A stretch of DNA of 64,000 nucleotides, from contig OZ076409.1 of assembly GCA_964187785.1 (NCBI GenBank), forward strand, positions 40,116,001 to 40,180,000. The letters run 5' to 3'. Shown here piece after piece: positions 5,601 to 39,009 of the stretch. Source of the DNA: Amphiscolops sp. MND2022 (taxonomy: Eukaryota). Under the pieces are notes generated by a model, which was given only the letters and a program-made list of their open reading frames with translations, was not told the DNA's origin and made no database searches. Position 1 is the stretch's first letter; every line of letters begins with the position of its first letter. The translations under genes were made by a program, and so were the position numbers.

Positions 5601-6746
5601 CTTGAGGAAAATAGTTTTAAGCTGAAAGTTCCTTTTTCAACACTATGAGACTTTCCCGAAAAAAAATCGAATTAATTTTCGAAAAAGGGATGTTTTGTAA
5701 TTCCAGTTGAGGAAACTGACTGTGGTTTGCGAGTCTTATGTGTATCCTTTGGGGTATTTTAGGCACTGAGATTTGAATTGACTTTGTATTTATCTGCTAT
5801 TCAATGAAAATAAATGCAAGCTAAGACAAATCATATACAACCATCAGTTAACAGATAGTTAAAACAGGAATATTTTCTCACAACAAAAAAATGTCCAATT
5901 TAATCTGGGTTGGCTCAGTTTTTGAAGAAAAAGTTTTAAGAATTACAGCTTGATGATCATTCAAAATACTATATCTTGAATAAGTTCTATTCCACCCCGT
6001 TCTCTTCCAAAAGTTCTGTCCAACGTCGTTCAGGTTTTTCTGGAAGGAATGGGGTTTGTCTTGTTTCTGATTGGTCGTTTGGGTGAATGGTATCCGGTAA
6101 AGGACACTTATCAGTCAATCTCTGCTTACCATCATGCATTAAATCAACAACAGCACAGAATTTATATAATTCAACTCATGCTCGATGAATGAAAAATCTT
6201 CAGAATCGAAAATGTTCCTCGCTTTCATATTGCCCACGCCTTCTTATTGTTCAAGAGATCCATCTTTTGTTTTGTTTTCAATTATCGGTCATTTCGTCTT
6301 TCAAATTGAAATTTTTTTGAATTAAATTCTAAAATTAAGGTACATCAAAAAGAATTCTACTCAGAGATTCCTTTAAAAATTGTTCTCGGAAAAAAATATT
6401 CTTTGTGAACAAACACTTTGATTCTTTAAATCTAGAAGGTTTCTTACTACAACAAGTACTTTGGAAAGTTGTGAAATACTCTTCATCAAAATCTTCAAAA
6501 CAATAATCATATAAATTTCGGTTAAGGGACAATTTTAACTTTCATCAGAACCTCTATTGTTATTAATGTAAATTATTTTTAAAAATTTTCACTAGTTCAT
6601 TTCACATATTTTTTCAAAACTTTCAAGGTATGTCATTCATTCATAGGGTGAAATTGATATGATGAAGTTAAAAAAGAGTGCATGAGACAAAAGATTTGAT
6701 TTTTGAAAAAAAGTATTACTTTATTATAAGTTGAGTACAAAAACAT
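2625..6746 (+). repeat. Left arm of giant inverted repeat
   Basis: Reverse complement of 8483-13412 with scattered substitutions; ORF 5266-5559(-) mirrors ORF 9728-10015(+). Confidence 0.95.
3381..4985 (+). repeat. 84-bp tandem repeat array (about 19 diverged units)
   Basis: Consensus cttagctactttagacctatagtattgtactgtatattgaaagatagatcgaatataagtcctatacgaccgtgttcattgaat; ttagct occurs at 3451 and 3535. Confidence 0.95.
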
Positions 6747-8482
6747 TGCGACTCTGAAAGTCTTGCAAGAGACACTCGCATGGATTCAATCTTCGTGTCG
6801 AATTTCTTACTTAACGTTCGCGACAACTTTCTTCCCAAACGTTACGTAAAAGATTCGACACGAAGATGACGTAACTAAACGTAAAAAACACGCAGCGTGT
6901 GTCGAGTACAAACAACTCCACCGGTACTAGACTTTTTTCGTTAACAAAACTGATGTTCCAACGAAACTGGAGCGGTCTTTTCCATTGTGCCAAGCAACAT
7001 CCAGCGGAGTTTGAAAGAAGGCACTTTTTCCAGTGACAAGGTAGCCCATAGCACAAAACCTAATTTTTCTTGCCTTATTTCCGTTTAGTGGGAACTGCCG
7101 TTACCCAGGTTTGAACCTCAGCATATCCTAAATCTTTGATAGTATTCGTGCAAAAACTACTTTTCTGGCGAAGTGATCTTTCAACAAGAAAAATGTATTT
7201 TTCTACATGAGTGCTTCCATCGAATGTCAAACGTGGATAATATTTGCTTGATTCTAAAACACAAGAGAAACTGAAATAGCAAAATCGAGTAACAACTTTT
7301 GTTAGTGACAGTCGTGAAGATTGAATGGTTCAGAGTGACAAAGACGTGGATGTTTTGATGCCTCTCAAGATCACTGTTGTAGAGTTGTACAAACGGCTGT
7401 TGTCTAGGCTTGAACAAAGTGTACAATTTGGCAAACTTTTGCTATATTGGATTAATGATGTGCTATGCATATAACGAGAATGATGACGTCGAATATGAAA
7501 AGAACAGTAATTTCGATAAAGCAATTTTAAAAAACCTAACTTTTCTTACGTGTTGCCTTTTGAAGCCGCGACACTATTTCATACTGTTGAGCAAGCGTTT
7601 TCACAGTCTCTCAAATTTGCAGGCCGTTTTTGATGGATGAAATGTTGTTTTAAAAAGTCTGTTTAGAGTAGACATGCTCCGCGAGTAAAGTTGGAGGAGA
7701 GAACACTGCTTTGAAGACTATTGCAATCTCCCTGTTGAAGACATCAACAATCACAGTGGTATCTATTCCATAACCCGTGAACCCCGTCACCGGGTTCAAA
7801 CCACCATTTACCCGTGCAACTAGCGCCAAAGCAATCTTTCGCGCAACCGACTACTCCAACCAGACCTTGAATAAAACATTCGCTGCAACCTTTTCAAAGA
7901 AAACTGACAATGACTATATCTGCACCAAGAAAAATGTTGAAGCAAATTCGAAAAAAAAAATGTTTTAACTGAATTCATTTCTAAGGAGCGTTCATACTGT
8001 CAAGAGACTTTTCTGGTTTGCCAATCCCACCATCGCCTGAGCTGGGAAACAACCCTTGGGAGAATGGAAAACCAATTCATAAGGGAATGGATTTCGTTTG
8101 ATGTAAAACTTCCTATACGTGTTTTTACTATTGTTTGAAAGATTTAGCGCTTCGGATGAAACTTTGAGTTGGACTGAAAACGGTTGCTATACGCACACTA
8201 CTGTAGAATCAACACCAGTGTCCCAACAAAACCTTAATCCCGTGTGACATTCAGACAATCCTCCATAGAAGTTCTTCCCGCTCTCTGATTGAAAAGTGGA
8301 GGAAAAAACAAACAAGGTTTCTTAGAACACCCTTTCTCAAGACTTTTACAGAAAAAAAATATTTCGTTAATCATTTGGCTAAAACTTGTTTGCTCTTACA
8401 AAAACATGAGAAAAAAAACGTATCGGCACTTGTCCCAGGATAAATTGAAAAATTGAAGTATATTCCATATATCTTTTAGATT

Positions 8483-11400
8483 ATGTTTTCGTACTCAACT
8501 TATAATAAAGTAATACTTTTTTTTCAAAAATCAAATACTCTGACTCATGCACTCTTTTTTACCTTCATCATATCAATTTTACCCTATGAATGACTGACAT
8601 ACCTTGAATGTTTTGGAAAAACATGTGAAATGAACTAGTGAAATTTTTTTGAAAACAATTTGAATTAAAAACAATAGAGGTTCTGATGAAAGTGCAAATT
8701 GTCCCTTAATAGAAATTTATATGATTATTGTTTTGAAGATTTTGATGAAGAGTATTTTACAACTTTCCAAAGTACTTGTTGTAGTAAGAAACCTTCTAGT
8801 TTTAAATAATCAAAGTGTTTGTTCACTAAGAATATTTTTTTCCGAGAACAATTTTTAAAGGAATCTCTGAGTAGAACTCTTTTTGATGTACCTTAATCTT
8901 AGAATTTAATTCAAAAAAAATTCAATTTGAAAGACGGAATGACCGATAATTGAAAACAAAACAAAAGATGGATCTCTTGAACAATAAGAAGGCGTGGGCA
9001 ATATGAAAGCGAGGAACATTTTCGAATCTGAAGATTTTTCATTCATCGAGCATAAGTTGAATTATATAAATTCTGTGCTGTTGTTGATTTAATGCATGAT
9101 GGTAAGCAGAGATTGACAGATCAGTGTCCTTTACCGGATACCATGCACCCAAACGACCAATCAGAAACAAGACAAACCCCATTCCTTCCAGAAAAACCTG
9201 AACGACGTTGGGCAGAACATTTGGAAGAGAACGCGGTGGAATAGAACTTATTCAAGATATAGTATTTTGAATGGATCATCAAGCTGTAATTCTTAAAACG
9301 TTTTCTTCAAAAACTGAGCCAACCCGGATTAAATTGGACATCTTTTTGTTGTGAGAAAATATTCCTGTTTTAACTATCTGTTAACTGATGGTTGTATATG
9401 TTTTGTCTTAGCTTGCATTTCTTTTCATCGAATAGCAGATAAGTACAAAGTCAATTCAAATCTCAGTGCCTAAAATACCCCAGAAGATACACATAAGACT
9501 CGGGAACCACAGTCAGTTTCCCCAACTGGAGATACAAAATATCCCTTTTTCGAAAATTAATTCGATTTTTCTTCGGGAAAGTCTCATAGTGTTGAAAAAG
9601 GAACGTTCAGCTTAAAACTATTTTCCTCAAGTTAAAAACACATGGGAAATCAAGAGCATACCCTTCAATTAAATGAAAATTTTGGAAAAAAAACGCACAG
9701 AGTCAAAAACCAAAGAATGAGAAATATATGAAAACAAAAAGGTCTCAGTGCCAACAAAAACCAGAGGGGGACTCCTCGGGTTCAGATGATTTTGTATCAA
9801 CTCTGAACGTCTTGAAAATCAAAAGGAGGGACCCTTGTGTGACATTGAAAACCTCTCCAACAAACGGCATTTCCAGTACACGTTATATCCGGAATCTGTT
9901 ATATCCGGTTTGCCGTAAATCCTGTTGTGTTTTTGTCGAAGGGGCTCCTTTACATTTCAAATGTAGGATGTACACTGCCCAAAGGGACTTTACCAAAATT
10001 GAAAAAAAATACTAGAACTAATTTTGGTAGTTCAGGTGTTTTCTAGAGAGAAACGCTGTCAAAACAATTTGTTTGCTGAGAATAGTTCCAGATTCTTTTC
10101 AAATTGGGCGTAATCGAAGCACGTCATATCTTCAAAGAAACAAAGAAACAATTGAACCAGTTTTTCCACAAAAGTGTTTTTATACTGACGGGCTTTTCAC
10201 GGTGACCTGACTTTTTTGATTCAAAAATTCGAATTTTGACCATTTCAAACGGTTTTCATCTGAGCTTTGCAGTCAATACTAAAGTAGTTAAGATTCTATA
10301 AACACTGCCGTATAAGACTTATGTTTGATCTATCTTTCCATATACAGTACCATATTATAGGTCTAAAGTAGCTAAATTTCGATGCAAACGGTCGTATAGG
10401 ACTTATATTTGATCTATATTTCAATATACAATACTACACTATTTTCCTAAAGTAGCTAAGATTCAATTAACACGATCGTAAAGGTTTTATATTCGATCAA
10501 TCTTCCAATATACAGTAGCATAATTTGGGTCCAAAGTAGATAATAGTAGGTGAACACGATCGAATGGGTTTCATTTTTGATCAACCTTTCCATGTAAAAT
10601 GCCATGCTATAGGTCTAAATTAGATACGATTCAATGAACACAGCCGTACAGGACTTATGTTTGATCTATTTTTCAAATTACAGTGCCAAATTATAAGTGT
10701 AAACTAGCTAAATTTCGATGAACACGGCCGTATAGGACTTTTATTCGATATATCTTCCAATATACAGTTCCATACTATAAAAAAGCTAAGATTCGATGAA
10801 CATTCTCGGATAGGACTTATATTCGATCCATCTTTCAATATACAGTACAAAACTTTAAGTCTAAATTAGGTACGATTTAACCGACACGGTCGTATAGCTT
10901 TTATATTCGATCAATCTTTCAATATACAGTACCACAATATAGATCTAAAGTAGCTAAGATTCGTTGAACTCATCTCCAAAGGACTTTATTCGATCTATCT
11001 CTCAATTTACAGTTTCACACGATAGGACTAAAGTAGCTAAAATTCAATGAACATAGGCGTATAGGACTTATAATGGATCTTTCATTCAATATACAGTACA
11101 ATACTATACGTCTAAAGTAGCTAAGATTCAACGAACACGGTCGTGTAAGAATTATATTCTGTCTATATTCCAATATACAGTACAATACTATGGCTCTAAT
11201 GTAGCTAAGATTCAATTAACCCGATCGTATAGCTTTTATTTTTGATCAATCTTTCAATAAACAATACCGTAATATAGGTCCAAAGTAGCTAAGGTTGAAA
11301 GAACAAAGTTGTGTAGGAGTTATATTTGATCTATTTTTCAATTTACAGTACCATACTATAGAATTAAAGAGGCTAATATTCATTTAACAGGGCTGTAAAG

Positions 11401-13412
11401 GACTTATATTTGATCTATCTTTCATTATACAGTACAAAACTATAGGTCTAAAGTAGCTAAGATTCAATTAACACGATCGTAAAGGTTTTATATTCTATGA
11501 AATGTTTCAGTATACAGTACCATACTAAAGGTCTAAAGTAGCTAAGATTCAATGAACAAAGGCGTATAGGACTTATATTGGATCTTTCATTCAATATACA
11601 GTACAATACTATACGTCTAAAGTAGCTAAGATTCAATGAACACCGTCGTGTAGGAATTATATTCAGTCTATATTTTAATATACAGTACAATACTACAGCT
11701 CTAATGTAGCTAACATTCAATTAACACAATGGTATAGAATTTATTTTCGATCAATCATTCAATATACAGTACCGTAATATAGGTCTAAAGTAGCTAAGGT
11801 TGAAAGAACAAAGCTGTGTAGGAAGTATATTTGATCTTTTTTTTCAATTTACAGTACCATACTAGAGAATTAAAGAAGCTATGAATCATTAAACAGAGCT
11901 GTAAAGGACTTATATCCGATCTATCTTCATTATTCAGTACAAAACTATAGGTCTAAAGTAGCAAAGATTCAATTATCATGATCGTATAGGTTTTATATTC
12001 TATAAAAGGTTTCAATATACAGTACCATACCAAAGTTCTAAAGTAGCTAAGAATTAATGAACAAAGTTGTTAGGGACTCATATTCGATATATTCGATCTA
12101 TCTCTCCTTTTACAGTACCTTACTATAGGATTAATGTAGCTAAGGTTCATTGAACAGAGCTGTAAAGGACTTATATTCGATCTATGATTCAATATACAGT
12201 ACAAAACTAAAGGTCTAAAGTAGCTAAGATTCAATTACCACAATCGTATAGTTTTTATATTTGATCAATTTTTCAATATACAAAACCATAATTTAGGTCT
12301 AAAGTAGCTAACATTTAAAGAACAAAGTTGTATAGGACTTATATTGGATCTATCATTCAATATACGTTACAATACTATAGGCCTAGGGTTGCTAAGATTC
12401 AATTGACACGATTGTATAGCTTTTTTATTCGATCAATCTTTCAACATACAGTACCATAATAAAAGTCTAAAGTAGCTAAGATTCAATGAACATAGGCGTA
12501 TATGACTTATGTTCGATATATCTTTCGATATACAGCCCCATACTGTAAGTCTAAAGTAGCTAAGACTCAATGACCACGGTCGTCTAGGACTTAAATTCGA
12601 TCTATATTTCAAATTACAGTACAATACTATGGGATCTCTGTAGAGATCCTAGTAGAAAATAGTAGCTATTTCAGGGGCTACTCAGCGCATTTGTTAAACA
12701 AAGTGTGCCCTATTTCGTGTCCGGCACTTCGTTATTCAACACTGTGAAAACTCTTTCATTATTCTATACTGAGAAAAATTATCCTTTTTACAGCATTTCA
12801 GCATCTTTTTCCATCAATTTCTATAGCAATTTTCACAATTTGCAGAACTCATTTCCATGTTACTCGGTGTGAAAAACTGGCGTTGTGTAAAGGTAGAGAT
12901 ATTTCTAGTGGTTGATGGTTGGAAAGATAAAGAATGTTATCCATTATGCCAAATCCATTACCAAATGAAGGTAACTTCAGGGAAATTTTATCCATAGAAA
13001 TCACGCATCAATAAAGGTCACTAGCATCAAAAGGAAGTAGGTAGATGCACATTCATTTCAACGTTGGTAGATGAAAACACCTTTTATTGATCGTGTTTCC
13101 TTTTATCACGGCCACAATTTCCATTCCTAACAAACTGTTCCTTCCATTTTTTTATTACTTTCCAGCACGCAAAGGTAAGACAATTTCCTTTCATTGCCTG
13201 AAATAGAAACAAAAAAAATTCCAGGCTCGTATTTTTCAAGGTTGTGTAGTTTTGTTTCGGTTTCTAGTCGGCTCTCCGTGAGTGAGTATTTTTGACCTTC
13301 GGTTACGTCATTGTGTCGCAATCATGATGTCATTCGGAATTCGCGTTATGACCATATTTGGTTACTCACTCAACCCTCCCCCCCACCTATAATGCCGCGT
13401 ACTTTTACTACT
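8483..13412 (-). repeat. Right arm of giant inverted repeat
   Basis: Begins atgttttcgtactcaacttat, the reverse complement of the left-arm end. It is longer than the left arm because it has more 84-bp units. Confidence 0.95.
10275..12632 (-). repeat. 84-bp tandem repeat array, inverted copy (about 28 units)
   Basis: Same unit in reverse complement (aaagtagctaagattcaatgaac...). Confidence 0.95.
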
Positions 13413-13418
13413 AAGTAC

Positions 13419-16400
13419 CGATTTTGGATCTTATTACCCATGTCACCCTGGAATTGGAATTTTACCTTGTTATTGGCATTGTTTTTAAAGGCTAGTCAAA
13501 CGCTGGTCTTCGGAGAGTCAAAAAGATGCCCGTTACTATTAGCATTCAAAGACTAGGACCGGTTCGAAGGTATTCGTCGAAGCACCCGCGGCCTCGGGAC
13601 GTATTTCATCCCTGGAGGCAAAATGGATCTGTGGCGATGGGCGCCCGTCCCGAGCGATTCACCCATTCCTGCAGGTTCCTCCGCCTCTGTTAACGAGATA
13701 AGCGACGGATAACAGCTTGTCGTTACATGAGGCTTCGCATCATTTTTTGGCGACCACAGAGGGATAGCTTCCGACTACTGCCCTATATTATGGTTTTGAA
13801 ATTTTTGACCCCCTGTTATTGGACGCCACGAACGATTTGGCTCTGGCAGGAGACGTTGACTCAATGTTTTTCCATGTTTTTTAGATAATATGATATCGTT
13901 TGCTGGTATTTTTCTGTGTTTCGGTGGAGTTTTCCGAATACCTGATGTATGTTTTGTTAAAGGTATTTGTTGACAGGTATGGTCTAAAATTGCACGTTCC
14001 TATCAGCGCGTACCTTTGTAATGGCTTAGCAAACTGCTAGAAAGCCGTTACGCATGTCGTAACAGGTGTTTTGTAGCTCATTTCAGCGTTTTTGGCTAAG
14101 TACGAGGTTTTCAATTGATGGATGCGCCATATTCCATCCACCTGATAGTTGAGCAGAAACGAGTGTTCCCGACTCCCCTTCCCCATTTCGCGTAGATAGG
14201 TGCTAGAAGCATGGTTTTTGGAGCTAGAGCAAACACTGACGTTGCCGACGGTCCAAACCGTTTCTCTCTAGCTGGTCTGGGTGTTGAGAAAAAAGACGGC
14301 GAAGGCACCACCCCTCATTCCGTAAGAATCAGTTTTTTGGAGTGGGGTATGAAAATTTTATTCGATTGTGTATTTTTCGATGGAAAACCGTTTGCCCAGG
14401 CTAGTTTTTCCCTGTTGCATTTTAGTGTGTGCTTTTGCACCTGTTTTCAGTGAAAACACTGCGCTTTTGAGTGCAAAAGTTGCAAAAACGTCGTTTTTGG
14501 CATTTTTGAGTGATTTTCTTGGTACGAGCCCAGGCGCTCTAAATTTATACCACAGGAGTTCCCAAAACTGATGAAAAGCAGCTCAAAACATTCAGAGTTC
14601 TGCGACATAACGTAATGTCCACCAGAGAAGCCGTTGGAGTCCTTTTTGAGACGCATTTGGTCTGAAAACACCCGGTTTTTTAGCGAAATTGGCAAAAAAC
14701 CAACATGAAATGCTACTAGGAGCGTGCCAGATAGTGATTTAATTGCCCTCTCCATGCTGCTATTAGTTTGGGGCACACTCCACAGTACCAAAAATAGGAT
14801 TCAAAAGAGTTTGTAACGTTTTCATAGTGATCACAGGTCGAAAACCCTTGATTTTTGACCAGTTCCAGGAAAGACCGAGTGCATAATTAAAACCTCTTAG
14901 TGTCTTTGAAGCCTGGGTGCTCGCGCACTCTCATTTTCTGTTTTTCTAATAAAAATAACGCCTAGTGGTGAAAACCGCTTGCAAAAATACCCATTCAGTG
15001 CCGAGAAAAGTGGAAAAACGCACTGAAATTGACCAAATTTTAACAAAACCGGGCTGTCTAATTGTTAGGGCCGGGTCATAGATCCCTGAACCCTAGTCAA
15101 AAAGTGTTTGATTTTCGTAACCACCACTAAAATTAATGCTATTACCGAAAGTTTGGTGAGCCTAGCGCAAACCAAAGTCGAGAAAAACTCTCTGACGTTT
15201 CGACTTCAGAAAGCACTGAAATAGCCAAAAAAGCTAAAACTGTGCTTAACAGGCACTGCTAATTGAGGGCTTGCTGTGACCAATGGGCCAATACGTTAAC
15301 CCCACAGAACCTGCCGTAACATTTGTAGTGTCGACCCTCTTAGCTGATTTGTGAAAAAAGCGTCAAAAAAGACTGTTCGGTACCTAGCCCAAATTCCTGG
15401 TAAGCTCGAGCGCTTCCATTGGACCATGGAATCCGTTTTGTGGGTGCCTACTGGCCACGCGTACACAAGTTTTGTGTCGATTGGTGCGATAGTCCTGAGA
15501 GATAGCAAAAAATGTACCGTCCAAAACAAGGTGCAAAAGGGGCATTTTTTGCAAAGTTTTTCGGAAAGATCCGGACACCTTAGCCGGAGAGTGATGACAA
15601 ATTGCCGCTCACTGATGTAACAGGTACTAGTTGAAACACCGCTAGCGAAAAAACCTGACCACTGACTTTAACCAGTGCTCAGAAATTGCGTGATAAGTGT
15701 ACATTTTGACCCCTACTGATACATAGCGGTACCGCACGTCCGTACCTAGGGGAAATCGTGCACAAGTCACGGAACCCAAATCGGTGTTCATTACCGTGTA
15801 CCTAATTGTGGGCGAGATCCTTTAACTAATTTTGGGTGGGATCCGACTCTTGAGTGACGAATACGAGCCACATGTAATTTTTTGTGTTGTCTAAGAAAAT
15901 TTAACATTTGTCATAAGTGCCTCGTGATCGCGCCCACGATCGTGTAACCCTCATCCAAGCTAATTTTCAGGGCTTGTGGGCTTCAGAGAATTTGAATTCG
16001 CTCCAACCCATAGAAGTGATTTCCACCAACTCGAGACGTGCATATCGCGATTTCGACTTAACGTTTTACCGAGACGAAAACTTGGAAAATGGGACAAAAC
16101 CCAATTCTACGTGTTGGAAACTTGTGAAACCCCCTAGTGTGAACTCCTATTCGTGATTAGTTCGCTGGTTGTGTGAAGTCTGGTCAGTATCGAGTAGATT
16201 GACTTACTGGAACACGGCATTTTGTTACTTACAGTTGTGATATCCTGGGTATTGTAACGAATTGACCATTTTTGAGTGTTATCGGCGCACCTCATCGGAA
16301 AATTGGGACCACATTGCTCTGGACCATTGTTGTCACTGTCATTTGGTGCACCGTTGTTGAGAAAGTGAGCTCGCGAGCTCAATGCTGTGGACAAGAGTCT

Positions 16401-16930
16401 TTGGTTGCACGTGAAAAATCGTGTCCCCTTAAGACACGGCAATACGGAACACTTGTACTGTATCTGAAACAGATCCAATGGCCTGAGACCCAATTGGTGC
16501 TTATCACAGTGTACCTGGCACTACGTGCAATCGCGTGGCTGATTTTGAGCCCGGTTTTATGTTTCCAGTCTTTGTGCGAGCCACTTGAGTAATTTACAAA
16601 AATGTTTGAAACTTTCAAAAATTGGCTTCAAAGACTCTTAAAAGACTCCATCTTGTGGCTGGAGGTATTTATCAGCTTTGGGAGGTCATTTTTCCAATTT
16701 GTTTGACAGAGCAAACACGTTGTGCAGTTTTTCACCCAGTACACTTGATAGAACTGAGTTTGACTGTGCTCAGAGACACGTTTTGGCCAGAATCCCAAAA
16801 AACCCGTCAGAAAGTTGAAAACATAAAACCTTAGTACACCCGCTTCACTGAAGGCAGAGATCAAAAGCCTTCGTTTTCCAACCGCACGGGTCTGGTAGGC
16901 TTTCCTGGGTGCAAACGAGGCCAATCCTAC
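13419..16930. mobile_element. Non-coding host sequence, possibly LTR/leader of the gypsy element whose gag lies at 45.4-47.0 kb
   Basis: GC-richer and without convincing ORFs. It joins 2153-2624 and 44734 onward once the TSD-flanked insertions are removed. LTR boundaries were not identified. Confidence 0.3.
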
Positions 16931-18183
16931 CATTACGAGACCTATCCCGGTAAAGTGGAAATCAGTCACGCAGCGTAATCTGTTTATTCAGTAAAATGGT
17001 CATTCAGTGTAAGTCCGTCAAGATGGTCAATGCCTGGACGGTGTAGCTGTGTCAAAGCGCGTAATGGAAAATAGTGTAAACTAGTCAATGCGCGTAGTTA
17101 GTTAAAAGTGGAAGTTAGTCCACAAATACACTTTTTCGTAATTCAGTCAAAACTTTGACTAACTTCCACTTATTGCAAGTATGGCGATCTGCTATTTGTA
17201 AAAAGTGGAATGGAGCTGCAAATAGGAAACCCGGTGACAAATCAATCAATTGTTTTAATAGTACTAACTAGTAGCTACAAGGTGTTTTGCACGTAAAATG
17301 CGTGGATAAAACACACGTGTACACGTGCGCAACTTGCATTGAAAGCAGATTATACGTACTATGCATGGTACCGCTCAGTAAAGATAACTAATTATAGTGA
17401 ATCATTGTTTACTTTGACTGTTTTACGATGTGGTGGTATCAATCAGAATTAAAAGGAACACTGCGTTTTGAATGCATATAAACATGATGTAAGTTAGTCA
17501 AAACTTTGACCATCAAACTTTAGTCAAAACTTCATCAAAAGTTGTTCAACTAATTTTAACTTTGGTTCCTGTCGTGAGCAAAGCACGGTCACTGGAACCA
17601 TTGGTTAACGAATTGATCTGGTCTGGGCATTTTGAGCCGGGGTATGTACAAGGATTAAATTTAATCCCTGTCATGAGCAACATCGATAAACGTTGTAACA
17701 AATAGTCTATACGCAGTTGAAACTTTATCAAACCGAAAACAATAGTTTATGGAATACCAATCATGAATTATGGAACTAAAAACGAAGCTTGGATCATGTG
17801 CCTTACCACCTCACATAAAAAATGTTTCTTAACATTTGTTAGTTGTTAATGTTCAATTGTTATTATCATTTATTCCATAATGTTTCTTTAATCATTGAAG
17901 AAATAATATATAATACTGGAACTTCGTGTAGATGATTGTATCTTTTTCCTTCAACCCGCCATTATGTCGATATAATGGTAATTATATATTGTAAAGAGAC
18001 CGCCAGAGACTAACTACAAGTATTAGTAATAAAAATGAATGGTTTTTTAAAGAAGTTTTTTCAATTGGCCAATTGAAGAGTTTGAATGTTTACAAATGCA
18101 TGAATGTTAGTCTTTTGACAAATACATGAAAAAATTATGTAGGTTTTAAAAATTTATGAATATGTGCAAAGCAGCGGCAAAGT

Positions 18184-18407
18184 GGGGACGTTGGCGCAGT
18201 CGATAAGTCCGTGGGTCTGCGAAGCTAAATGAGACTGTTAGTATCACAGGATCGATCCCAGCCACTATCACACTGGCTTGGGGGACTCGATGCAGACTAC
18301 GCTTACAAAAATTCCATTCATATTGATTCAGCAAAAGACATTGGTGTTATTCCGCAGAAGCTCCCACATGGAAGGATCACCGCGCCACTGAAACATCCTT
18401 TTTGATG
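18184..18407 (+). ncRNA. tRNA-derived Pol III-like unit (SINE-like), copy 1
   Basis: A-box-like TGGCGCAGTCGA (18192), B-box-like GGATCGATCCC (18249), 3' catcctttttgat. Alignable to 56108-56330 and 57425-57615. Confidence 0.5.
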
Positions 18408-18758
18408 CTTAGGTTCCAAATATCATAAGAGCAAATAACAAAATTGAAATTAGTTCCAAATACCAAAACTATAACCAAATATCCGGATAAACAATCGAAC
18501 TCAGGAATCTTTATCTGTAATTTCCATACTTTTTTCAGTAAACCTTTTGAATTGTGAATGCTTTTGGCCACTGAAATTTTCTCGTAAACCATTTTGATTT
18601 TGTTTTTTGAAACTCATTTCATTTTTTTTATCATTTGAAACTAATTGTTTTTGTGTTATTTGCTTTTATGGTATTTGGGAATTCACCCTTTCTGATGAGA
18701 TGAACTCCAAGGAGTGACTTTTTTCTATGCTGCAACTTTGTGTGGTGACCAGACCTTG

Positions 18759-20202
18759 CATTACAGTGCCAAAAGTGGGTTAGCACAATTTTGTGCTATT
18801 AAGTCACCGAAATCCACTGACGTATTGTTAAACATGTGTTTCACTGATTTTCAGTGGATTCCGCTGTAGCCTGTTCTGGATTCCACTAACATATCTAGCT
18901 AATGTACAAAAATGCGTGCACCGAATTCCACTGCTTTTCACTACCAACTGATTGAACCAATCGCGTCAGCTTATTTCATCTTTCAGCGGAATTCGCTGAA
19001 TCGTGCAGTGGATTCCACTTCGGCTTACAGTCGATTACAATTTGGCTCGCAGCCGATTCCACTTTGGCTCGCAGTCGATTCCACTTTTCAACTTGTGGAA
19101 TTGACTGCAAAACGAGTGGAATTGACTGTAAGCCAAAGTGGAATCCGCAACGCGGTAATCCACCCAAATCCACACGCGGGTAAGAAAAGTTCGTAATCCC
19201 TTCATATCATGTACCACTTCATCCATGGTAAATTAGTTTTGAACGCTCAAATCTTATGAAAGTGTGTTGATTATGTGAAAGCTGAATAATTTGAATGTAT
19301 CTCACAAATGAACACGTGAAAGAACACGTTCAAATAACACATCAATGAGACATGAATGAATTTTTAAAATATTTTCTCTCCAATTTTTCATGTTAAAACC
19401 TGATTGGAACATTAAAAACTTGAAATTTTGATTTCCACCATGAGGTGATTGAAAAACGAAAACTAGTTATAAACTAAAATCTTATTCAGCATGCAATTTG
19501 ACTAACAGTGATTTGACGCTACTTTAAAGTTTATTAGATGACTAAATTTGAATTTGTAGAACGGTAGAATTAATAAGGTCGCCGTTGCAGTCAGCTTGGA
19601 AGTATGATTCAATCAAAGAATGAAAAAAAGTCAAACCAAAGCGTTAAAGCGGTGCGAGTATCAAAATAAATTGATTGACAAAAACTCTGTAGTAAATATT
19701 TTGAACCAAATCAAGAAAATCTGAATTTTGCTTTTTGTGGCTCTTGCTGATTCTGAACATGTTTTTCATTCTCAAAACTGAACACGTGAGGGAAACACTT
19801 TTAGGCACTGAAGTACATGAACTCCACTTTTTTTCGATGGTTGATAACCTTTGTAGGTTGGTAATGAAAGAATTCAGTGAATTCCACTAAAACACTGCAG
19901 TGGAGTCCACTACAGCCAATGGTGGATTCCACTGCGGCCATCGGTGGAGTCCACTGCAGCGTTTAGTGGAATCCACTTTTCCTGTTAAGTGGAATCCATT
20001 GCAAGATCCGAATGTTTAAGATATTTGATAGTGGAATCCAATGCATTGCACCGAAATTCACTGCGAAGAAATCTCCAAAAAAAGTGAAATCGACTGCAAC
20101 GTAACAGCATTTGTTAGTCGATTACGCTGCACGCGTTCCAAAACTGCCGTCCAGCGAAATCCACTACCAAAATTCGAAATACCCACCTTTGGCACTGTAA
20201 TG
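18759..20202. mobile_element. 1.44-kb MITE with CATTAC termini and 2-bp TSD
   Basis: CATTACAGTGCCAAAAGTGGGT ... ACCCACCTTTGGCACTGTAATG (21/22 match). TG flanks both ends (18757-58, 20203-04). Many GTGGATTCCAC-type palindromic subterminal repeats. Confidence 0.85.
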
Positions 20203-21967
20203 TGGTAAATGATAATTGCAATATTATTCATGCTGAAAATACGTTATTTTTACGGCGTTCAGTTCTAAAAAAACAATAGCAAAAGTATTTCAATAATATA
20301 ATTTTGTTTCGAAGACTGAATTCATCTGCAAATTGAAATAATCATGAAGCAGCAGTTTCACGTGGCAAAGTTTCATCAACAATTTCAGGGCTTCAAAGAT
20401 GGACGCCAATAAGTTATCAAATCAAAAAGTATTGCAGTTAATTTTCACTCAATTATTTATAACCAAGGTCTGATGGTGACTCAAAGCAAATCGCTGAGGC
20501 TAAGTCCCTCCAAATTGATTCAGATGAAATTCTCTACACATTGATTCAGCAAAAGACATCTGACTTGTTCCGCTTAACAATGATAGGAATATCCCACATT
20601 CAAGGATGAATGCGTCACTGCATCCCTTTTTGATGAAAGGAATGCTCATTTCTGTTTACAAGATTTTGAATGTAAATTATTTTTAAAACTTTAGACTAGT
20701 CAGAATAACTTTTTAAATTGATTAATAACACAAAAATAGTGTGAAGAAGGTTTGTATCTCAATTCCAAACTGACACTTTGAAAAAAATTAAATTGATGGT
20801 TTCTGGTTTGTATTGACGTCTTCTTGTTATAATAATTTTACTAAATTTCAAAAATCCTGGCGGTGGAGGGAAAAGAGCTGAGAGGAACTCCAAGGACTCA
20901 CTTTTTTTCTGTGTCATAATTCATTGTGGTGAATCAATGCGAACTTCTGAGACAGTTCATCTCATATTGACTAATCAAAAGACATCTGCCTGTCTTCCTC
21001 CGCCTTCAAATGATAAGAAGATCTCACATAGAAGGATCCTGCGTCACTGCATCCCTTCAAGGTGACAAAGTATGTCACAAAAGTTTTAACGAAATGCTGA
21101 CCAATGGGTGACTTTTTGGAGGGAGGGGGGGCAAAATGTTCTCGGGGCAGAATACAACCAAACTACTTTTCCCCATCAAACGTTCTATTTGTTTTCTGCT
21201 GAAATTAAAGGTTATAGCTAAAGACTTTTTCCTGAAATTGTTATAGGAAAGAATTTTCTTAACACTGGGCGGAAATACTTCGTTAGAGAGGGGAATTTGC
21301 CCGATGAAATAAAAGAAAGAACCCCATAGATCGATTAGTAAACTTCTAAACTTTGATCTTTGTCGTGGTCCAGGATTTTTACACTGATCCGTTTTTTGAT
21401 GCCTGCCGTGAGCATGGGCAAAATTGTTCCAAAAATTACAATTTTGAAGACTTATCATCAAAATATAAAATCAAATTATCTCAATCCACTCATTTAAACC
21501 CCCAAGAAAACATAAAAGTAAAGTGAGTTTTGTTGTAAAACTTCCACTTCTCCCCCAATCACAAAGCTCTAGAACTCTAAACAGGGATGTAAAAACAATG
21601 TAACAAAATATGTCGACAATACAAAACAGACTTTGTTCAAGATTCAATTCTGTTTGTATTGTTGATTTTTTTTAATTCATTTGTTTTTAAATCCCTTTTT
21701 AGGACTAAAAATCTCCACTGTACGCAACTACGCTAATAAAACTATCTAATACTAGTTTGTCTAATGGTACAAACTAATAAAACGCCACTGTACTCTTTTG
21801 TACTAAATAAAGATTAGTTAACGACAAGATTAAAAAGCCATTAGTTTAAAAATAACCACCTTTTGAGCGTTGTAAGCGAACGATTCTTTCATCAAGATTA
21901 CCATTCATCAAATTTCAAACTTTGTTACATGAACTCATGGTTTTCAAAAAGACACGAGTAAGTCGTA

Positions 21968-25073: not shown

Positions 25074-25190
25074 AGCTACACCTTCCAGGCATTGACCGTC
25101 TTGACTGACTTACGCTGATTGACCATTTCACTGATTACACAAATTACGCTGCGTCACTAAAATCCACTTTACCGGAATGTGTCTCGTAAT
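25074..25190 (-). repeat. Inverted, diverged copy of the element A left end
   Basis: Its reverse complement attacgagacacattccggtaaagtgg...ggtcaatgcctggaaggtgtagct aligns to 16932-17048. Confidence 0.85.
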
Positions 25191-27775
25191 CGACTGCCTT
25201 ATTGAATCCAAAAGTAAATCTCACAGTGAGAGATAGTTAACATAGTCTTTCGACGCTTCGTAAAACCGAAAATGAAAAATTAGTTTCTATATTCATCATT
25301 TGAAATCAATTCCTCGTAAAGTTCAGAACCTCAATTTCCTACAAACTTCTCAACTATATTGTTGCAAACCATTTTCACCACTCGTAACCAAAAACATTCA
25401 CAACTCTTAAGTTCGAGAATCAAAAGTAAAAATTTTTCGAATGATGAAAGCTTCTTGAAGAAATGGTGGAATTGTACAAGAAACAATCCATGAACCCGCG
25501 CCTGCCTGCTCCTGTTCTGAAAAAGTCAGATATCTCATCCTCACGCCCAGCTGATATATATGACTTCGTTCCATCGAACTCATCAATGCCAGCAATGATC
25601 GCCGACAATCATACAGATATAACAATTTTTGTTACTCTAAATTGTACTTTTTCCCGGGCAAGGTTGTTAATTATACAGTTTTTTTCACGAAAAGTGTTTA
25701 AAACATGTTTTTCCGAAATATATTTTTTGTACTCTATCATTTTTGGCCGCGTTTTGCCTGAATGTGCCTGTTATGTACAAAAAATGTTTATGCAGAATGC
25801 TTATTTGTCGCAAAATATTTCATTGTTGTACAAAAGTTGTACATAAAATTGGAAAATCTTTACAACAGAAAACAAGTGGTTTAGCACTAAAGGAAAAAAC
25901 ATTTGAAAGAATATTTTGAAAAAAATTTATTATTCATGTTTTTTTCGTTCTGTTTTATTTTTGAATAAAACAACTCAACAACCCTGCCTCCTGGCTATCA
26001 GTCCTATGTTGACAGTTCCAGTTACGTAGAGCATTTTGTTCCTGACGTAAAACGATCAGACATCTTGAAATAGTCAATAAACTAAAGTATTGACACTCAA
26101 TGTAAGTAATTTGAATACTTTGACTGTCGTACGATGTCAGATAAATACTACGGAACAAAGTGCTCTACAAAACTGGGAAGCGTTCTAAAGCTTTGCAAAT
26201 CACTTTGGAATCACTCAAAGATCATCGAATCTGTTTTTTTTTGAAAAAAAGTATCTTTCCAAGCTCAACTGAGTAATTTATTGAGCCAAACAATCAGTGT
26301 AGGAATAAAGTCGGTTTTTTATATGACTGAATGCAATCATTTTTTTGGATTTCTTTGGATATACAGTGGACACGCCTATAAGAGACAACACCTTATTGGC
26401 ACGCATATTTCGGTCCTCGCTGAAATGAAGCAAATATATTGTACTACTGATATAAGAGACAACGTATATAGTAGACAAGAATACCCGGTTCCACTGTATC
26501 TGCATTCCCATGTTTGAAAAACAGATCGCTTTCAGAGAATCAATGCTGTTTTGTTATTCAAATCAAATCACTACTTGAACACTAGCGCGACCATAATGTC
26601 AAGGAAGTCAATACGGTCAATGAGGGTTGGTTTCTGCGATATTCTCAATGAAGTCAATTTTTGAATGTCGGGTCAATTTAGGTACATACATGTAGAATAC
26701 TGCGCAGAATACCGATTCGTCGAAAGATGGAGTTCCCTTTGGCCGTTTTCCGAAATCAGAAGGTTGTCTTTCAACTAGCTGCGCCATGAAGAGAAGTTTT
26801 TTCCCTTCTCAGAAGCTCTTGAGCTTCTCGGGAAATTTTTTCTCGGAAAATTGCTCTAAATATTTCTAGTGCCCCACTTCTAACACGCCCAGATGAATTG
26901 AAAAACCCCCATTCAACCAGGCGTCATCGACGAACTTCGCTGCTCCATTAAGCCCAATCAATGCAGTCAATTCCAACGGTACCAAATATGCTTCTCCCGT
27001 CGATTCTCGGCTAGCGGTGTATGACTTTGTCAACTCCGTCAAGAAAGGAAATGTTTATTGTTTTTGTGCTGTGACTGATGGGAACAAGTACGAATTCAGG
27101 AGGGCTTTAAAGTTCAATGAGTTCAAGAAAAAGTGATGACTTTCTATTTTACACGTGTTCGCCCGTTTTGGATAAATAGAATCGATGTTCTGAAAGACAG
27201 TTTTCTCACAGAACGTTTAGATTTGACTCCGCAAGAAGCAACACAGTCGTTTTTTTTACAATTCGCAAGGGAAAAAACAATTGGAAGATACCAGAGTTTG
27301 TGAGCACTTTCAAAACAAAATTAAGGCAGTCCACAGGAAGCCAAAACGAAAACTCGTCTACGAGCCAACTTCAACACTTGATGCAACTGTAAGTTCAACA
27401 GTGGACGTGATCTTCCAGGCAACCGAAACTCCTCTAACCAACACCCCCGATTCTGATTCAGCAGCTCAATGACAGTTGAAGCAAGTAGAGATGACTACGA
27501 TGTCCCCGACTTCAAAAAAGCAACTGTCCTACTCCAGTGATAGTTTTGCCAGTGTCATTTTAGTAAGTTAAATCTTTTGATATGCATCGTGTGCACTGAA
27601 ACAAGTTATTAGATTGAATTTGGTCCCTGCAATGAGCACAACTGAAACTTTTTATTGATCCTTTTGCTTTTCGTTCGGCCATCGAACTTTTCGCGCAATT
27701 TGGATTTTAACGTTTTTCGATGCACGAAATTCTTACAAAACTCTACTGGAGTAGATATTTAATGGTCTTTTTCAG

Positions 27776-28630
27776 GTGAAAAAAATTTTCTTTCCTCCAA
27801 ATAATCCCGAGGACACTATTCCTACGCCGGTCCAATGCAGCAAAAAAAACATGAGAAGAGATTGCATTGATGCGGTAGCAGCAAAGAACCTCGGAGGACG
27901 TGTGAATGACCACTTCACTACAAACTCGTGAATTTGCGTGTCCAAAAAAACATTAATTTCTTCCATGGACCGACTCAACCGTCCAGAGAGTGCGTAGCGA
28001 AAGTCGTCCGCAATCGTGGTTGGTCTGATCATGCAAGAATTGTACACAACACGATGTTAGCGTGGAAGCCTTCAACCACTGATGTTAGACGAAGCACTAG
28101 ACGTACAGTACCCGAAGTAATTGAGACGGATCTAGGAAGAGGCGTGAGTAAGAGTGGCCCTTCCTCCAAGTTTATGAAAAACTAAAATTCGAGAATGTTT
28201 CTGTCAGCCGAGGAGTGGTCACAACTGCCTCTATCAAAGAATCGGAAATAGTTTGTGACTACTACACAGACCTTGTCATAGACCAGACACTATTACGCAG
28301 TATGTTCTTGACTGTGGTGAGTTTTTGCTCGATGCTACTGCCGAAACGTGCAAATGTCACCCTGGTAGAAGATCATTTGGATGTCTCCTCAACTACAGAC
28401 CGAGCAACATCCAAGAATGCAATGTGAGAATGAAGAGGACAAATATCGGTGGCAAAGATGTAGTTCTGTTCATTGCAGTGAGATTTGCTTGTAGTTCATT
28501 TGCTTGGAGGAACTTTGCTTCGATTACAATAATCCAGCTCGCAAGGTACAGTGTTGCAGGCAACGTTCCAATTCCTCTGGTGCCTCACGGCCTACACAAC
28601 CCCCAGGAACATCTACCAGTGAATCTGACA
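27776..28630 (+). pseudogene. SET-domain methyltransferase pseudogene (SETD8/PR-Set7-like motifs), paralog of the 52.7-55.0 kb gene
   Basis: Joined frames read ETDLGRG / RGVVTTASIKESEIVCDY / QYVLDCGEFLLDATAETCKCHPGRRSFGCLLNYRPS..CNV..DVVLFIAVR / EELCFDYN. Several frameshifts; the NH motif reads NY. Probable upstream exons from about 26.7 kb. Confidence 0.8.
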
Positions 28631-29482: not shown

Positions 29483-31819
29483 ATGTTGCGCGAAGACGTA
29501 TCCGATTTTTTGACAATATCTGCACCCCCATCCTTGATTCCCTGGACGACTGAAAGAGTTGGATATCTACGACTATTTTTACCTTCGTTGCCCATTCTTG
29601 ACTCAAACTCTTTTTCGTCAATTGACACCACTTTTTCACAACAGTCATCCTTGCAAGGATCATCCTCGTGTTTCGCTGCAGAATCTTTGGAGGTCTTCTA
29701 TGAAGGAGGAGGTCTTCCTTGCGTCACTTTATTATAACTCACAAGCACTTTTTCACAAGTCAAACCTTCAACAGGAAAAACACCTTAGTTCATAAACTTC
29801 TTCATCTTTTTCTGCCAACCCTATTTTGCCTTGAAAGAGAAGACATTCAAATGGAGAATCAACCCCTGTCGTGATGTACACTTAAATGATTGCTAAGTAG
29901 TTGGAACACAAAACAAATTTAGTCCGTCTTGAGCAGCACTCAATTGTTTTGTTGGTTTAATACCACATTTTTCCCTGTTGTGAGAAACTTGAATTTGGAA
30001 TAATATTTTTTGGAATGTTTTCCAGGGTAAAGATGTGCGAATCAACCTGGAATGCAACCTCGTCATGTCAGAAGTGATTGGAAGGCCTGGGTGGTTATAC
30101 AACGAAACAAAAACCTTACATGACGAAGGTGCTATACTGATTTGTTCTGGTGATTCACCATTCCAACTGTGTCTTTTAAAAGGTGTTAGCAGTGATGTTT
30201 CTTTTCTGTCAAAGATGTGTCTTTATGTCAGTGATCTTGCAGATATTTCGAACCTACCACTGAAACAGACCAAAAAGGACATCGCTGAATATAAGAGAGA
30301 AATAGAAGTGAGAGGGTGAGTCTTCCGTCAACTGTCGATTACGCTACTGGTCGAAGAACAGAATTGATCATTGACATCAACGAATCCATCCAAAAAGGTT
30401 CTGTCATTTTCCTCAAATCCACTTTCAATTCATGTCCTGATCTGCTGCATATGGTTGTTCGTTCAGTCGAAAGTGATGTGAAGTTAAACGTGGACTCGCT
30501 TTTGCTGTTGAAAGACCTTTCAGCAATATCTAGACTCGGATTTAAAATAACGGAACGAAATGTGGAACCACCGAGATTCAAGTTTGAGATCGTTGAAAAA
30601 CTCTGCATAGCCGTATCTCTCAGTTTCAGAGACGCCGAAGTTATAATATCCGACTGCAACAGAATCAGCGACTATGGCCATTCAGACTGCCCAATTTTTG
30701 AAGGTGTGTATTCATTCGAAAAACCTCATGTGTACAAAGCTGACCAAACAAGCTCTACAACGTCTTATAACGTATTGATATCATTGGTTGATGGGTTGCA
30801 GGCATCTTTCACAAAAGGAGTGGGCATTTCTGTTTGGAAACTGGCCGACCTTGAATTTTGATCTCTTTACCAGTTACTTGATTTGCTTCGACAGAGAAAT
30901 TTGAGAGACTTTCTAATGTGTAAAGATCTCTATGAAATTTATTACCAGTCAACTTTATGTCTTTTCGGTGATCGTGCGAATTTCCATACAAATTGAAATT
31001 GGATATACTACTAAGACTTTTTGAGAAGGTTGAGCTTCTGTCTTCGTTTTTTTACATGACAGAAGGAACTGAAGAAAGCCGCCACACAGCAGCCAAAGAC
31101 TACAATACGAAGACAATGCGTGATGGTGGTAATGATGCATGGAACATGTCATCCAGTTATCTCGATATTAAAGTCCACATCCACATCAAAGTCGGTGACA
31201 CTTGAATCTTACCGGAAAATGTATGGCAAAACAAAGACGTATCATGAAATTTGCCGTGAACCTATTCCAGAACCCGAACCTGACTATCTTACAACTGAAA
31301 GCATGTTTAGAGGTATGCACATTGTCATTCTTGGAACATATGGGCACCTGAAAGCAACTCAAGCGAGTCTTGAAAAAAGATCACCGAAAATGGAGGAAAT
31401 GTTGTTTCCAATGTAGATATCATCAATAGAAGCAAGTTGAATTTTTGAGCCATCATTATTGCATTTTACCAAATCGAATTTGTATCGACGCATTCATTAA
31501 TGGTCAACCATGTAAAGAAAAAGCTACAACAAAGGCCCTTTCCAATACGATACTCGGTAACCAGATTAACTTGAAGCCTGAATTTGTAATCGCCTGAGTA
31601 CAGAAAAATTCCTTGATTGATCCCAAAGATTATGTTTTTGAAGAAGATCAGTCTGCGAGAGCCAAATTCAAAACAATGAAATACATATCTGTGGCCCCGC
31701 AATTACTATGTCAATCAAACCCCCTACGACATGGTTCATTAACTTACCATACAACAATGCGGAAGTACAAGAACACACTAAAAAGGGCAGCCTTGAAGCG
31801 AAAAATAGACGACGTTTAA
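29483..31819 (+). pseudogene. Decayed RAG1/Transib/Chapaev-like DDE transposase with C-terminal BRCT-like domain
   Basis: Motifs in order: LICSGDSPF (30149), MCLY, CPDLLHMVVRSVE (30436), PYKLKLD, MTEGTEESRH..KDY..KTMRDGG (31056; compare RAG1 SEGNESGNK). Then FRGMHIVILG..LEK/KITENGGNV..SHHYCIL..LKPEFVIA*VQKNSLIDPKDYVF (BRCT-like, about 31300-31640). Multiple stops and frameshifts; first catalytic Asp not located. Confidence 0.6.
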
Positions 31820-31825
31820 TAGCGA

Positions 31826-32162
31826 ATCATTTCAGTGCAGATTCAAAAATTACTTATTTTATCAGACAAGGTTTCTTTGACCGCTTCATTATCATTTCAG
31901 TGCATATCTATAACTTATTTCATCAAACAAGGTCCCCTTGACCACTTCATTATCATTTCAGTGCACATCTATAATTTATTTCATCAGACAAGGTCCCTAT
32001 GACCGCTTCATTATCATTTCAGTGCATATCTAAAACTTATTTCATCAGACAAGGTCCCTTTGACCGCTTCATTATCATTTCAGTGCAGATCTATAATTTA
32101 TTTTATCAGACAAGGTCCCTTTGACCGCTTCATTATCATTTCAGTTCAGATCTGAAACTTAT
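31826..32162 (+). repeat. 61-bp tandem repeat (about 5.5 units) just 3' of the transposase stop
   Basis: Unit ccgcttcattatcatttcagtgcatatctataacttatttcatcagacaaggtccctttga; starts at 31881, 31942, 32003. Confidence 0.95.
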
Positions 32163-32600: not shown

Positions 32601-35600
32601 ATGGAGACACTGCCGACTACGCCATCAACGTCCCATCGAAAGACACCAGAGAAAGTCCCATGCGGCCAAGGTTCTGTCAACAGAAAATAATAAAGTTTTT
32701 GTTATTAGGCTGGGACGTTTTGCTAGTTTCTTTCATGGAAAATTTTAATCTGACATATGGAATTCATTTAAAGCACTTGTGACGTTGTGGACAAGCTGTC
32801 CAACATCCTTCGCCACCCAAAGTCTGTCCCCGAATGCCACGAGAGCAGTTCAAGATCACGGAGAGAACGTGCGAGCTCTGCGGCCAGATCATTTCCGCCA
32901 AAAAGCTGCGGAAGAAGCACTACAATACAAAGTATTGTAAGGAGCAGCAAAAGCGGAAAGCAGAAGGCCTGCCTACCCGAATGTACCAGTACGGTAAGTC
33001 ATTACGATGTATGTTAATCCTTGATCGACTTGTGAACATCTTGAACTGTTAATTGTATCATGTCCAAAAAGATAAGGAAACTCAATGGTGTTGATTTTGA
33101 AAATAGAATAGTTGCGGTTTCAAACAAAAAGTGTGTTCTAATTCTCGTAACTTGTATGTTACAGCAGCTGCAGAAGGCTTGAAGCGGAAGCTTAACTTAT
33201 GCTACGGCAGATGATGCGGCAAGTCATATGTTTACCCTATGACTTGCGCGTACACCTTTTGAAGAATCCTCAAAACCTGGACCGAACGAATGTGAGTGCC
33301 TTTTTTCTCTTTATTCAATGTGAATGTGTGATTGGAATCCATTTTATCGGACTATGTATAATATTGCCGTACACCATTGATTGACCATTTGATACTTGAA
33401 AGACCGTGTTTAAACGGTGACAGTGTGACTGGAATCCGTTTTCTTGGACTATGTATGGCACTGCTAACACTGTGGCAACTGTTTAGGCTGCAGTACCCTT
33501 GGGCTCAGATTCCTCGAGTAACATTGGGGAGCAATTCAGGCCAGAAGATTTCAACCACATTCCTCCTGATGTGTTTGGATCTGATGGATTTTTCAAATTC
33601 GCGATGGAAGTGCCCCTCGACTACGAGTTTCCTGTAGCTCAATGGGAAGGAAACGTCGACGACCATGTCGTCAAATTCAATTCCCTGATGAGACACAGTG
33701 TGTCTCTGTTGTGGCGTGGAGGTGTCAACCATTGCGATGGTTTGAAGCTGCCTCAAGTGGAAGAACTCGCCTTCACTGAAGTCGTCACAGAGATTCTAGT
33801 CCCCCACAAGCTGCAGTCAAGTGCAGCAACTATCAATGTGAAGTCGGCAAAAATTGGAAAAGTAGGTCCTTGGTAGAATTACTTTCTATTTGAAGCTTGT
33901 ATATTTCGTAAAATACTTGGAACAACTGCAATTTGATTCCTGTCATGAGCTCGTTTTCCAACTTGTCAAACAACTGCATTTGAACTATTCTAACGAAGAG
34001 AAAGTTGTCCGTCTTATTCCCGTCTTAGTCACTTTATGACCATTTCATTTTAGAGTTGCGACCTCAGTCTGGATGAGTTCAAGCAGGAGCTCATCAACGT
34101 CGACAGAAGCAGCGTTTACTATCCTTTAAAGGCTATAGACATCGCCATGAATCCAAAGGTGAATACTGGGCTCCTTTGAAGGAAAACGCAAATCCACTGG
34201 CCTAAATATTGGACTTTGAGGATTTCAATCAACATAATGCACATTGTTTTGAAACAACTTCTTCATCCTATTTTGATTTTTTGTCTTTTCAGTCAATATA
34301 CAGCGTGCCAACGATGATAAGAAAAGTCCTCAGTGAACCACCTTGTGGATGAGCTGGTCAGTAAGTCAGAAGAATAGTTCTCAGTAGCGACTTCATACTA
34401 CTTGCTGATCTCCAACGATGGTTGTCATACAACTTGGCACACGGACTTCAGTTCAAAATCTGCCCTTTATACAGTCCTGACTGGGTCCAAGACATTTTCT
34501 CTCGTTGCACAAACGGAAAACAACATGGAGTTGTTCAACACCTGGTCGAAACAGAACGTGATGACATGTAAAACGTAATGATTCACCAAGGAGTATCAGC
34601 TTTTGTGTCCAATCATTTTTGTACATTTTGCACCTTTTGTCGATTAAATGCTACGTTCAACTTCTAGTGTAAATTTTGTTCTGCTGATTTTAGGAAACAA
34701 TACACAGGCCAAAATTCCCGTACGTGTTTTCATTGTAAATGCGAAATTTTCAGTTTTCCATTCACTATATTTTTGTTTTTGCACCGCCGAAAATTTTGAT
34801 AATACTCACTAGGTTTCAACAGTTTTCCTTTTAGGCCAACATTTTTTGGATGCCACGAAAGACTGGACGGGGGTTGCCTCAGGGTAACTCTTAATCCGGG
34901 CGCCGTTTTCGCCGTGCCGACTCAGTACATCCATGCAGTCCTCACAAGTGGAAACTCCGTGGCAGTAGGGACGAATTTCCTTTCAGAAAGCCACTAGAAG
35001 CAGATCATGAAGGCAATCGTTGAAGAAGACTCCTTCAGGGATCATGAGAAGTTTCCGGGCATGTTGGAAATGCCAGCCATTTTGATGCTCAAAGCATTTG
35101 AAAGACGCATGATAACTCCGGACTTCCTCCGACTTCACAGGGTTATTTGGAATCGTTATCAAGAAAGTAACGCCGTTGCTGTAAGTTCTATTTTTTGACA
35201 AAGATCACATTCGTTTTCAATCAAACTAGTGATCGAATGAAGTCTTTGTATAATGAAGCCGTGTTGTGACTCACGACAGGAATCAAAATCAAAGTTTGAA
35301 CATTTATGACATTGTGACTCGCGACAGGGACCAAAATTAAAATTGGTAATCAACAAAGTTGATCAAATAACATAGTAAGTTATCACGAGTTTTTTTTTCA
35401 GATTTGCCCAGAATTCAGCAAGGAGAGACTCGTTTACAATATTTGCTCACGCAAAGACTTCGTAAACGATGACTGTGTGACCGCTTTCACGGAGACGGCC
35501 TCAAAAAAGACATATCTTCTTTGCCCCAAGCCTTGCTTCAGAAGAAGAAACTGGGTTGTGAACGAGGACGACGTGAGGGTCCCGAAGGAGGCAATTCCTG

Positions 35601-38683: not shown

Positions 38684-39009
38684 TACAGTATCCTTCTTTC
38701 CTTACGATGTGTTTTCAGAAACAAAAGCTTCATTGACTATTGTATATTGAACACAAAATAGCACCAGCTTAAATTGATAAATTGAAAACAAAAATAGCAG
38801 GTGGTTAAATTGAATACAGAAATGGCACCAGTTTAAAATGAAAACTAAAATAGCACTAGCTTAAGTTTTTTTTAAAATGGAATTTGAACACTCTGAACTG
38901 TTTGGTGAATAAAATCACAAAAATATAATTGAAAAGAAAACAGTTTATCTCTTGAAGAGCAAATAAACAACGAGTTTTGTAACTTTAATGTTCTAGAAGA
39001 GAAAGTTCC

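Follow-up and report, generated by a model that had tools for sequence, protein, structure and literature searches.

The short non-autonomous element at 18759-20202, the much larger element in which it is nested (element A, 16931-44733) and the left end of a third element (element C, beginning at 47046) have CATTAC-type termini in common, and both insertions that can be scored within the 64-kb window, i.e., the whole stretch of DNA analysed, are flanked by a 2-bp direct repeat. The reading we consider most likely, and hold with moderate confidence, is that these are cut-and-paste families of the CMCT type that carry chromatin-modifying genes as cargo; membership of the CMCT clade is itself likely on the form of the ends and the length of the duplication. 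That cargo, a paired SET and JmjC gene, is the more notable feature, rather than the rule describing the ends.

The short element is a long MITE of 1,444 bp without assigned strand, bounded by a 22-bp terminal inverted repeat that starts CATTACAGTGC and pairs at 21 of 22 bases; its opening, CATTACAGTGCC, returns as an inverted copy at the other end. It is non-coding, with a longest stop-free frame of 97 codons, and it contains 13 of the 33 subterminal motifs of the GTGGAWTCCAC type in the window. Its flanking repeats (tg) occupy 18757-18758 and 20203-20204 on the plus strand. Element A, 27,803 bp long and likewise without assigned strand, has ac on both flanks and a 23-bp terminal inverted repeat (21 of 23 paired) starting CATTACGAGAC; its genes are decayed. 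Both insertions are thus as the initial annotation drew them, tg|CATTAC...GTAATG|tg and ac|CATTAC...GTAATG|ac. The third case it described, a Gypsy-type gag cut at tc|CATTACAGTGC at 47046, is also present, but of the three insertions for which it claimed a CATTAC terminus with a 2-bp target duplication only the first two bear the claim out, because the end at 47046 is unpaired: no matching right end occurs in the window and, when the window was searched by tblastn with 74 gag relatives, no continuation of the gag was found past 47044 save a spurious extension, so that no duplication is observable there.

Six related ends can be compared, those of the MITE, element A and element C and a further one at 25191, and five read CATTAC and one GATTAC, which agrees with the CA..TG trait of CMCT elements. 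As a bare word CATTAC is not enriched (38 occurrences in the window against 32.3 +/- 5.2 expected, a count reached by 18 of 100 shuffles); the non-random feature is its placement, outermost in inverted repeats, and not the word count. The left end of element C is akin to that of the MITE, with the first 11 bases in common, about 165 bases alignable (score 55, the best of 200 shuffles giving 38) and a subterminal motif found in both. The terminus of element A departs after base 6 and is without this motif. Under the Repbase rule, which is described as grouping non-autonomous elements by 11 terminal bases (PMC4455052), the MITE and element C would fall together as far as those bases go, whereas the MITE and element A fall short with 7 of 11 matching. 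None of 108 retrieved proteins reads into these termini, and the terminal patterns had no match in the metagenome or viral contigs searched. One bacterial genome matched 22 bases of a terminal pattern, with likeness confined to those bases; 0.14 such matches are expected, and we rejected it as within chance.

The left end of element C (47046-47761, plus strand) runs into an assembly gap of 200 N (47762-47961), which stands between that end and its supposed cargo genes. Past the gap lies a C2H2 zinc-finger and JmjC gene of PHF8/KDM7/KDM2-like type (48004-51670, plus strand), which is probably inside element C, followed by a gene with a terminal KMT5A/SETD8-like SET domain (52554-55040, plus strand; SET stretch 54378-55040). 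Among solved structures KMT5A/SETD8 is the nearest match of the SET domain (E 2e-12), and PHF8, KDM7 and KDM2A are those of the JmjC domain (best E 2e-10, to PHF8). The SET sequence has relatives in 14 protein clusters with 66 member sequences, 57-91% identical and all under a single source label; judging by these sequences they would be copies from the same genome, and so many close relatives are as expected of mobile cargo. Metagenome and viral contigs searched with an alignment of the SET domain yielded no related locus.

Homologous genes occur in element A, where decayed SET-domain exon(s) at 28200-28480 show 34% identity to their counterpart in region C and decayed JmjC exons at 33640-35030 show 32-44% to theirs (both on the plus strand). 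The JmjC exons of element A retain HxD and the distal His, so that the HxD..H metal ligands can be read in both copies. Since SET and JmjC genes are common to both, element A is tied to region C by its cargo and not by its terminus. Other gene-like sequence in the two elements is harder to name. The stretch at 29993-31640 in element A (plus strand) is without Pfam match, and the predicted fold of 30295-30858 is uninformative; by eye 31290-31640 has a likeness to a split BRCT domain, a reading for which Pfam gave no support over 31060-31413. Upstream of the SET domain, the exons at 53633-54370 have what we take by eye to be a faint likeness to a degenerate tyrosine-recombinase fold, for which 53927-54418 gave no match by Pfam, atlas or predicted fold. 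A dispersed motif like CTCCAGGAG is found in region C (47989-61674) and at the start of the window (1144-1312), which suggests that 1-1950 may be part of another C-type element. Region C and its surroundings also contain two duplications, 50535-54299 against 60241-64000 (99%) and 45923-46881 (98%), each of which is either a recent event or an assembly artefact, and minisatellites at 55226-55891 (171 bp) and 58079-58497 (82 bp) lie within the large elements. tRNA-like or SINE-like remnants at 18148-18404, 56072-56325 and 57365-57534 are common to element A and region C at about 70%; ARAGORN and Rfam returned no tRNA or Rfam family, these remnants included.

The initial annotation had assigned a RAG1/Chapaev-like transposase, which we did not recover. 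The tandemly duplicated minus-strand region 36600-40464 begins with a RING-like exon; these RING-finger-like exons (39050-39433, minus strand, with a second copy in the tandem duplication) form the start of a decayed gene. They match a RING finger weakly (Pfam E 0.016), and a diverged relative retains the RING-like exon at 50% identity across 36 residues. Downstream of them no DDE core was found by Pfam, PDB sequences, HMMER or atlas. Pfam scans took in 121 and 111 stop-free stretches, with a minimum length of 40 aa in 36500-40470 and 62 aa elsewhere, together with 12 read-through or relative proteins and 12 selected stretches, and named no transposase family, a result that very short decayed exons may escape. 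A PDB sequence search for a transposase in 36600-40464 gave no match and a word-based search with the candidate returned only itself. HMMER against 1.84 billion proteins gave 21 matches: the query itself, 10 that map to the nested Tc1-type MITE and 10 that map to the gene region under search. No match names a transposase family. HWLIEAH resembles the H(3-4)H motif, but its first His is lost in another copy (P0034), where the frame also differs, and the sole CxxC candidate between the RING and HWLIEAH, picked out by eye, sits inside the Tc1-type MITE. Two single-sequence folds (30295-30858 and 53927-54418; pLDDT 36 and 49) were too poor for searching. An alternative code with TGA as Trp, proposed from a 270-codon frame at 37067-37879, was rejected because non-coding stretches give frames equally long (266-283 codons).

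Since the searches recognised no transposase in element A or element C, the clade assignment rests on the ends and the duplication length, traits that are described as labile and as not to outweigh transposase homology (bioRxiv 10.64898/2026.08.26.747230). The same ends and 2-bp duplication might be produced by a transposase from an undescribed group outside CMCT, or by a tyrosine recombinase with a 2-bp crossover overlap. We think this unlikely. In its favour, element A, which is 27.8 kb long with both ends in place, yielded no transposase of CMCT type, none of the HMMER matches points to a family, and in the literature covered a search for CATTAC in connection with transposons returned no paper. 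Against it, element A has decayed, comparison with other copies shows parts of it to be missing, and its exons are short, so that the blank is weak evidence; the clade as described also accommodates short CA..TG inverted repeats, subterminal repeats and a duplication of 2 bp.

The 2-bp flanking repeats occur at two of two scorable insertions (tg at the MITE and ac at element A). The chance of a 2-bp flank match is 0.073 per element, and 0.0053 for the two jointly. A window-wide scan of 55 other inverted-repeat pairs found flank repeats in six, one a real 6-bp duplication and five chance-like, a frequency with which the per-element figure agrees. It could be argued that the CATTAC ends are real and their 2-bp repeats fortuitous, the elements making no duplication or one that has since decayed; two insertions were scored, five chance-like repeats of 2-3 bp turned up among the other pairs, and the flank of the 25191 end (ga) matches nothing. 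We regard this as improbable, given the joint probability and since inverted repeats, not flanks, served to define the elements. The window was found to contain no empty site for either the MITE or element A. A variable 2-bp target duplication, the best reading of these two insertions, is probable.

The integrity of element A bears on whether its cargo is enclosed at all. Once the nested MITE, one Tc1-type MITE and a 3.3-kb tandem duplication are removed, the element measures about 22 kb. It contains an inverted extra copy of its own left end (25074-25191, minus strand, 86% over 117 bp), overlooked by the initial annotation, which supplies a fourth related end at 25191 with G for C as its first base; no partner end was found for it. 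A third, inverted end within the element means that its structure is not simple. Near the left end, moreover, 17601-17831 repeats 43792-44021 near the right end (79%). These repeats, the inverted end and the tandem duplication would all be accommodated if 16931 and 44733 were not the ends of one element and the sequence between them were a nested or recombined patchwork that does not enclose the cargo. We consider such a patchwork very improbable, because 21 of 23 terminal bases pair and the ac flanks match, and because one dispersed motif like CCCTGTCGTGAG spans the element (10 copies, 17568-44299, all in element A and none outside). The duplication within 37139-43792 is near-identical (99.85%) and is either a recent event or an assembly artefact; a minisatellite with a 61 bp unit lies at 31826-32162, within the large element. 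The host sequence flanking element A (13413-16930 and 44736-45220) is perhaps a single long LTR, or the 5' leader, of the Gypsy-type element, with candidate landmarks in a TG start near 13441 and a primer-site-like TGGT near 45048. Adjoining it, 2625-13412 is a 10.8-kb element with AGTAGT ends, a 6-bp duplication (aagtac) and inverted repeats of about 4 kb that hold 84-bp tandem arrays; the interior stretches scanned gave no coding match, and presumably this is a non-autonomous Polinton/Maverick derivative.

The exact position of the boundary is settled by the broken Gypsy-type gag (45221-47045, plus strand), which has a 477-bp tandem duplication and frameshifts, is cut at 47045/47046, and has relatives carrying protease and reverse-transcriptase Pfam domains. 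When the boundary was shifted from -4 to +8 (13 positions) and duplications scored in the MITE and element A, only three shifts gave one in both elements: CATTAC with a variable 2 bp, AT, or TA (Tc1/mariner-like); no shift gave a 3-4 bp duplication. On the AT or TA reading the host supplies CAT, and Pro is expected at the break in the gag. Among 74 gag relatives, 32 fall short of the break site or do not match it, and in all 42 that match the pattern there the next residue is Gln, and in none Pro; the window tracks these relatives to the first base of the Gln codon and then turns to CATTAC. The CAT is therefore not host-supplied, and we chose the boundary with a variable 2 bp. CAT also precedes TA at five of the six ends, against a background of 0.018. 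TA|CAGTG is a typical Tc1 end, and the window provides an internal control in a genuine Tc1/mariner-type MITE (TA|CAGTGG..CCACTG|TA; 38006-38685, 680 bp including both TA, without assigned strand, with a second copy at 41337-42016), whose outer flanks are unrelated and not CAT/ATG; this MITE is multi-copy, as ten database fragments mapping to it show. A Tc1/mariner origin (TA|CAGTG or TA|CGAG), or one duplicating AT with a preference for a palindromic target, with CAT..ATG as host sequence, can point to the formal duplication that both shifted boundaries give in both elements and to the presence of a Tc1-type MITE in the window, but it is largely refuted and scarcely credible given the gag residue, the excess of CAT, the flanks of the control MITE and the tg and ac repeats that it leaves unexplained. 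The CATTAC boundary is well supported, and the initial annotation was right to draw the ends at CATTAC and not at TA|CAGTG: conservation does not stop at the latter with variable bases outside it.

Under the favoured CMCT-type reading, a DDE transposase supplied in trans would bind the subterminal repeats, excise the element at CATTAC and reinsert it with a 2-base stagger. The nesting would place the insertion of element A upstream of the Gypsy-type gag, that of the MITE into element A and that of element C into the gag. KMT5A is described as writing H4K20me1, and PHF8/KDM7 remove H3K9me1/2, H3K27me2 and H4K20me1. The KMT5A-like methyltransferase and PHF8/KDM7-like demethylase of the long members would hold their own chromatin in an open state against silencing by the host; as judged from their sequences, it is most likely that the SET and JmjC cargo alters the histone methylation of the element and so resists silencing, the genes in element A having since decayed. 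A more ambitious proposal, which we put forward tentatively and rate as doubtful, is that these are members of an undescribed lineage of giant (>20 kb) animal DNA transposons with CATTAC ends and 2-bp duplications, in which a KMT5A-like writer and a PHF8/KDM7-like eraser have been kept across diverged families as an anti-silencing kit and the transposase is too divergent for profiles. Should the cargo reading be right, both a histone methyltransferase and a demethylase have been retained by a group of transposons whose families are only 32-44% alike, and transposon-encoded chromatin editing in animals becomes directly testable, with the CATTAC rule as a handle for gathering such elements genome-wide. 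The literature searched, with most subscription papers outside its scope, contained no DNA transposon of an animal in which SET and JmjC occur together; nor did it contain a CATTAC-ended element, of which Repbase Reports or paper supplements could hold an example.

The terminal rule on its own is a modest addition to what is known. The CMCT clade is described as comprising EnSpm/CACTA, Mirage, Chapaev, Transib, Plavaka and ESTA as well as Lanisha, most of its lineages having CA..TG termini and duplications of 2-5 bp (PMC12730594). The elements described here are like them in their CA..TG termini, a duplication within that range, and inverted repeats that are short and accompanied by subterminal repeats, and unlike them in the CATTAC terminus and the SET and JmjC cargo; the searches recognised no C(2)C/H(3-4)H transposase in this decayed copy. 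CA..TG ends with 2-bp duplications being already known in CMCT, and CAT ends with 2-3 bp duplications in PlavakaB, the rule by itself defines no new lineage, and the proposal in the initial annotation that CAT ends with a 2-bp duplication and a RAG1/Chapaev-like transposase may define a distinct one finds no footing in the ends.

Among the individual groups, Chapaev is described with ends that are invariably CAC..GTG and with duplications of 3-4 bp (PMC4079192), and only the CA start is held in common with the CAT..ATG ends found here, where no 3-4 bp duplication occurs. The canonical 5-bp duplication and CAC heptamer-like ends of Transib and RAG-like elements are likewise absent, although exceptions to both traits are reported for Transib (bioRxiv 10.64898/2026.08.26.747230), and Lanisha is named without terminal details in the account available (PMC8245031). 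The Tc1/mariner arrangement, host TA with variable bases outside, differs from what was found at the gag (Gln in 42 of 42) and at the ends (CAT at five of six). Animal CACTA families such as Spongebob_HMa, of TRC type, are described with CCC ends, a 2-bp duplication and a length of about 5.8 kb (PMC4298943); the duplication in an animal genome is the same, whereas the termini and length are not, and the description of that family includes no chromatin cargo. SET genes are reported, citing others, from HarbingerS and MuDR families of oomycetes (PMC12730594), which resemble the present elements as DNA transposons with a SET methyltransferase but belong to other superfamilies and hosts, and for which that account mentions no paired JmjC. 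Counter-silencing cargo is known more widely, from plants (Vandal), oomycetes (SET) and fungi (TET/JBP) (PMC12730594). A close parallel is PlavakaB, described with CATCA..TGATG ends, duplications of 2 or 3 bp and, in some members, a TET/JBP enzyme (PMC12730594): these are fungal elements, whereas the host here is probably an animal, to judge by short introns, the KMT5A-like and PHF8-like genes and the Gypsy and Polinton-like neighbours. The ends of the present elements read CATTA(C) and not CATCA, and they gave no Plavaka Pfam match, but they are like PlavakaB in combining CAT termini, a duplication of the length described for it and an epigenetic enzyme as cargo.
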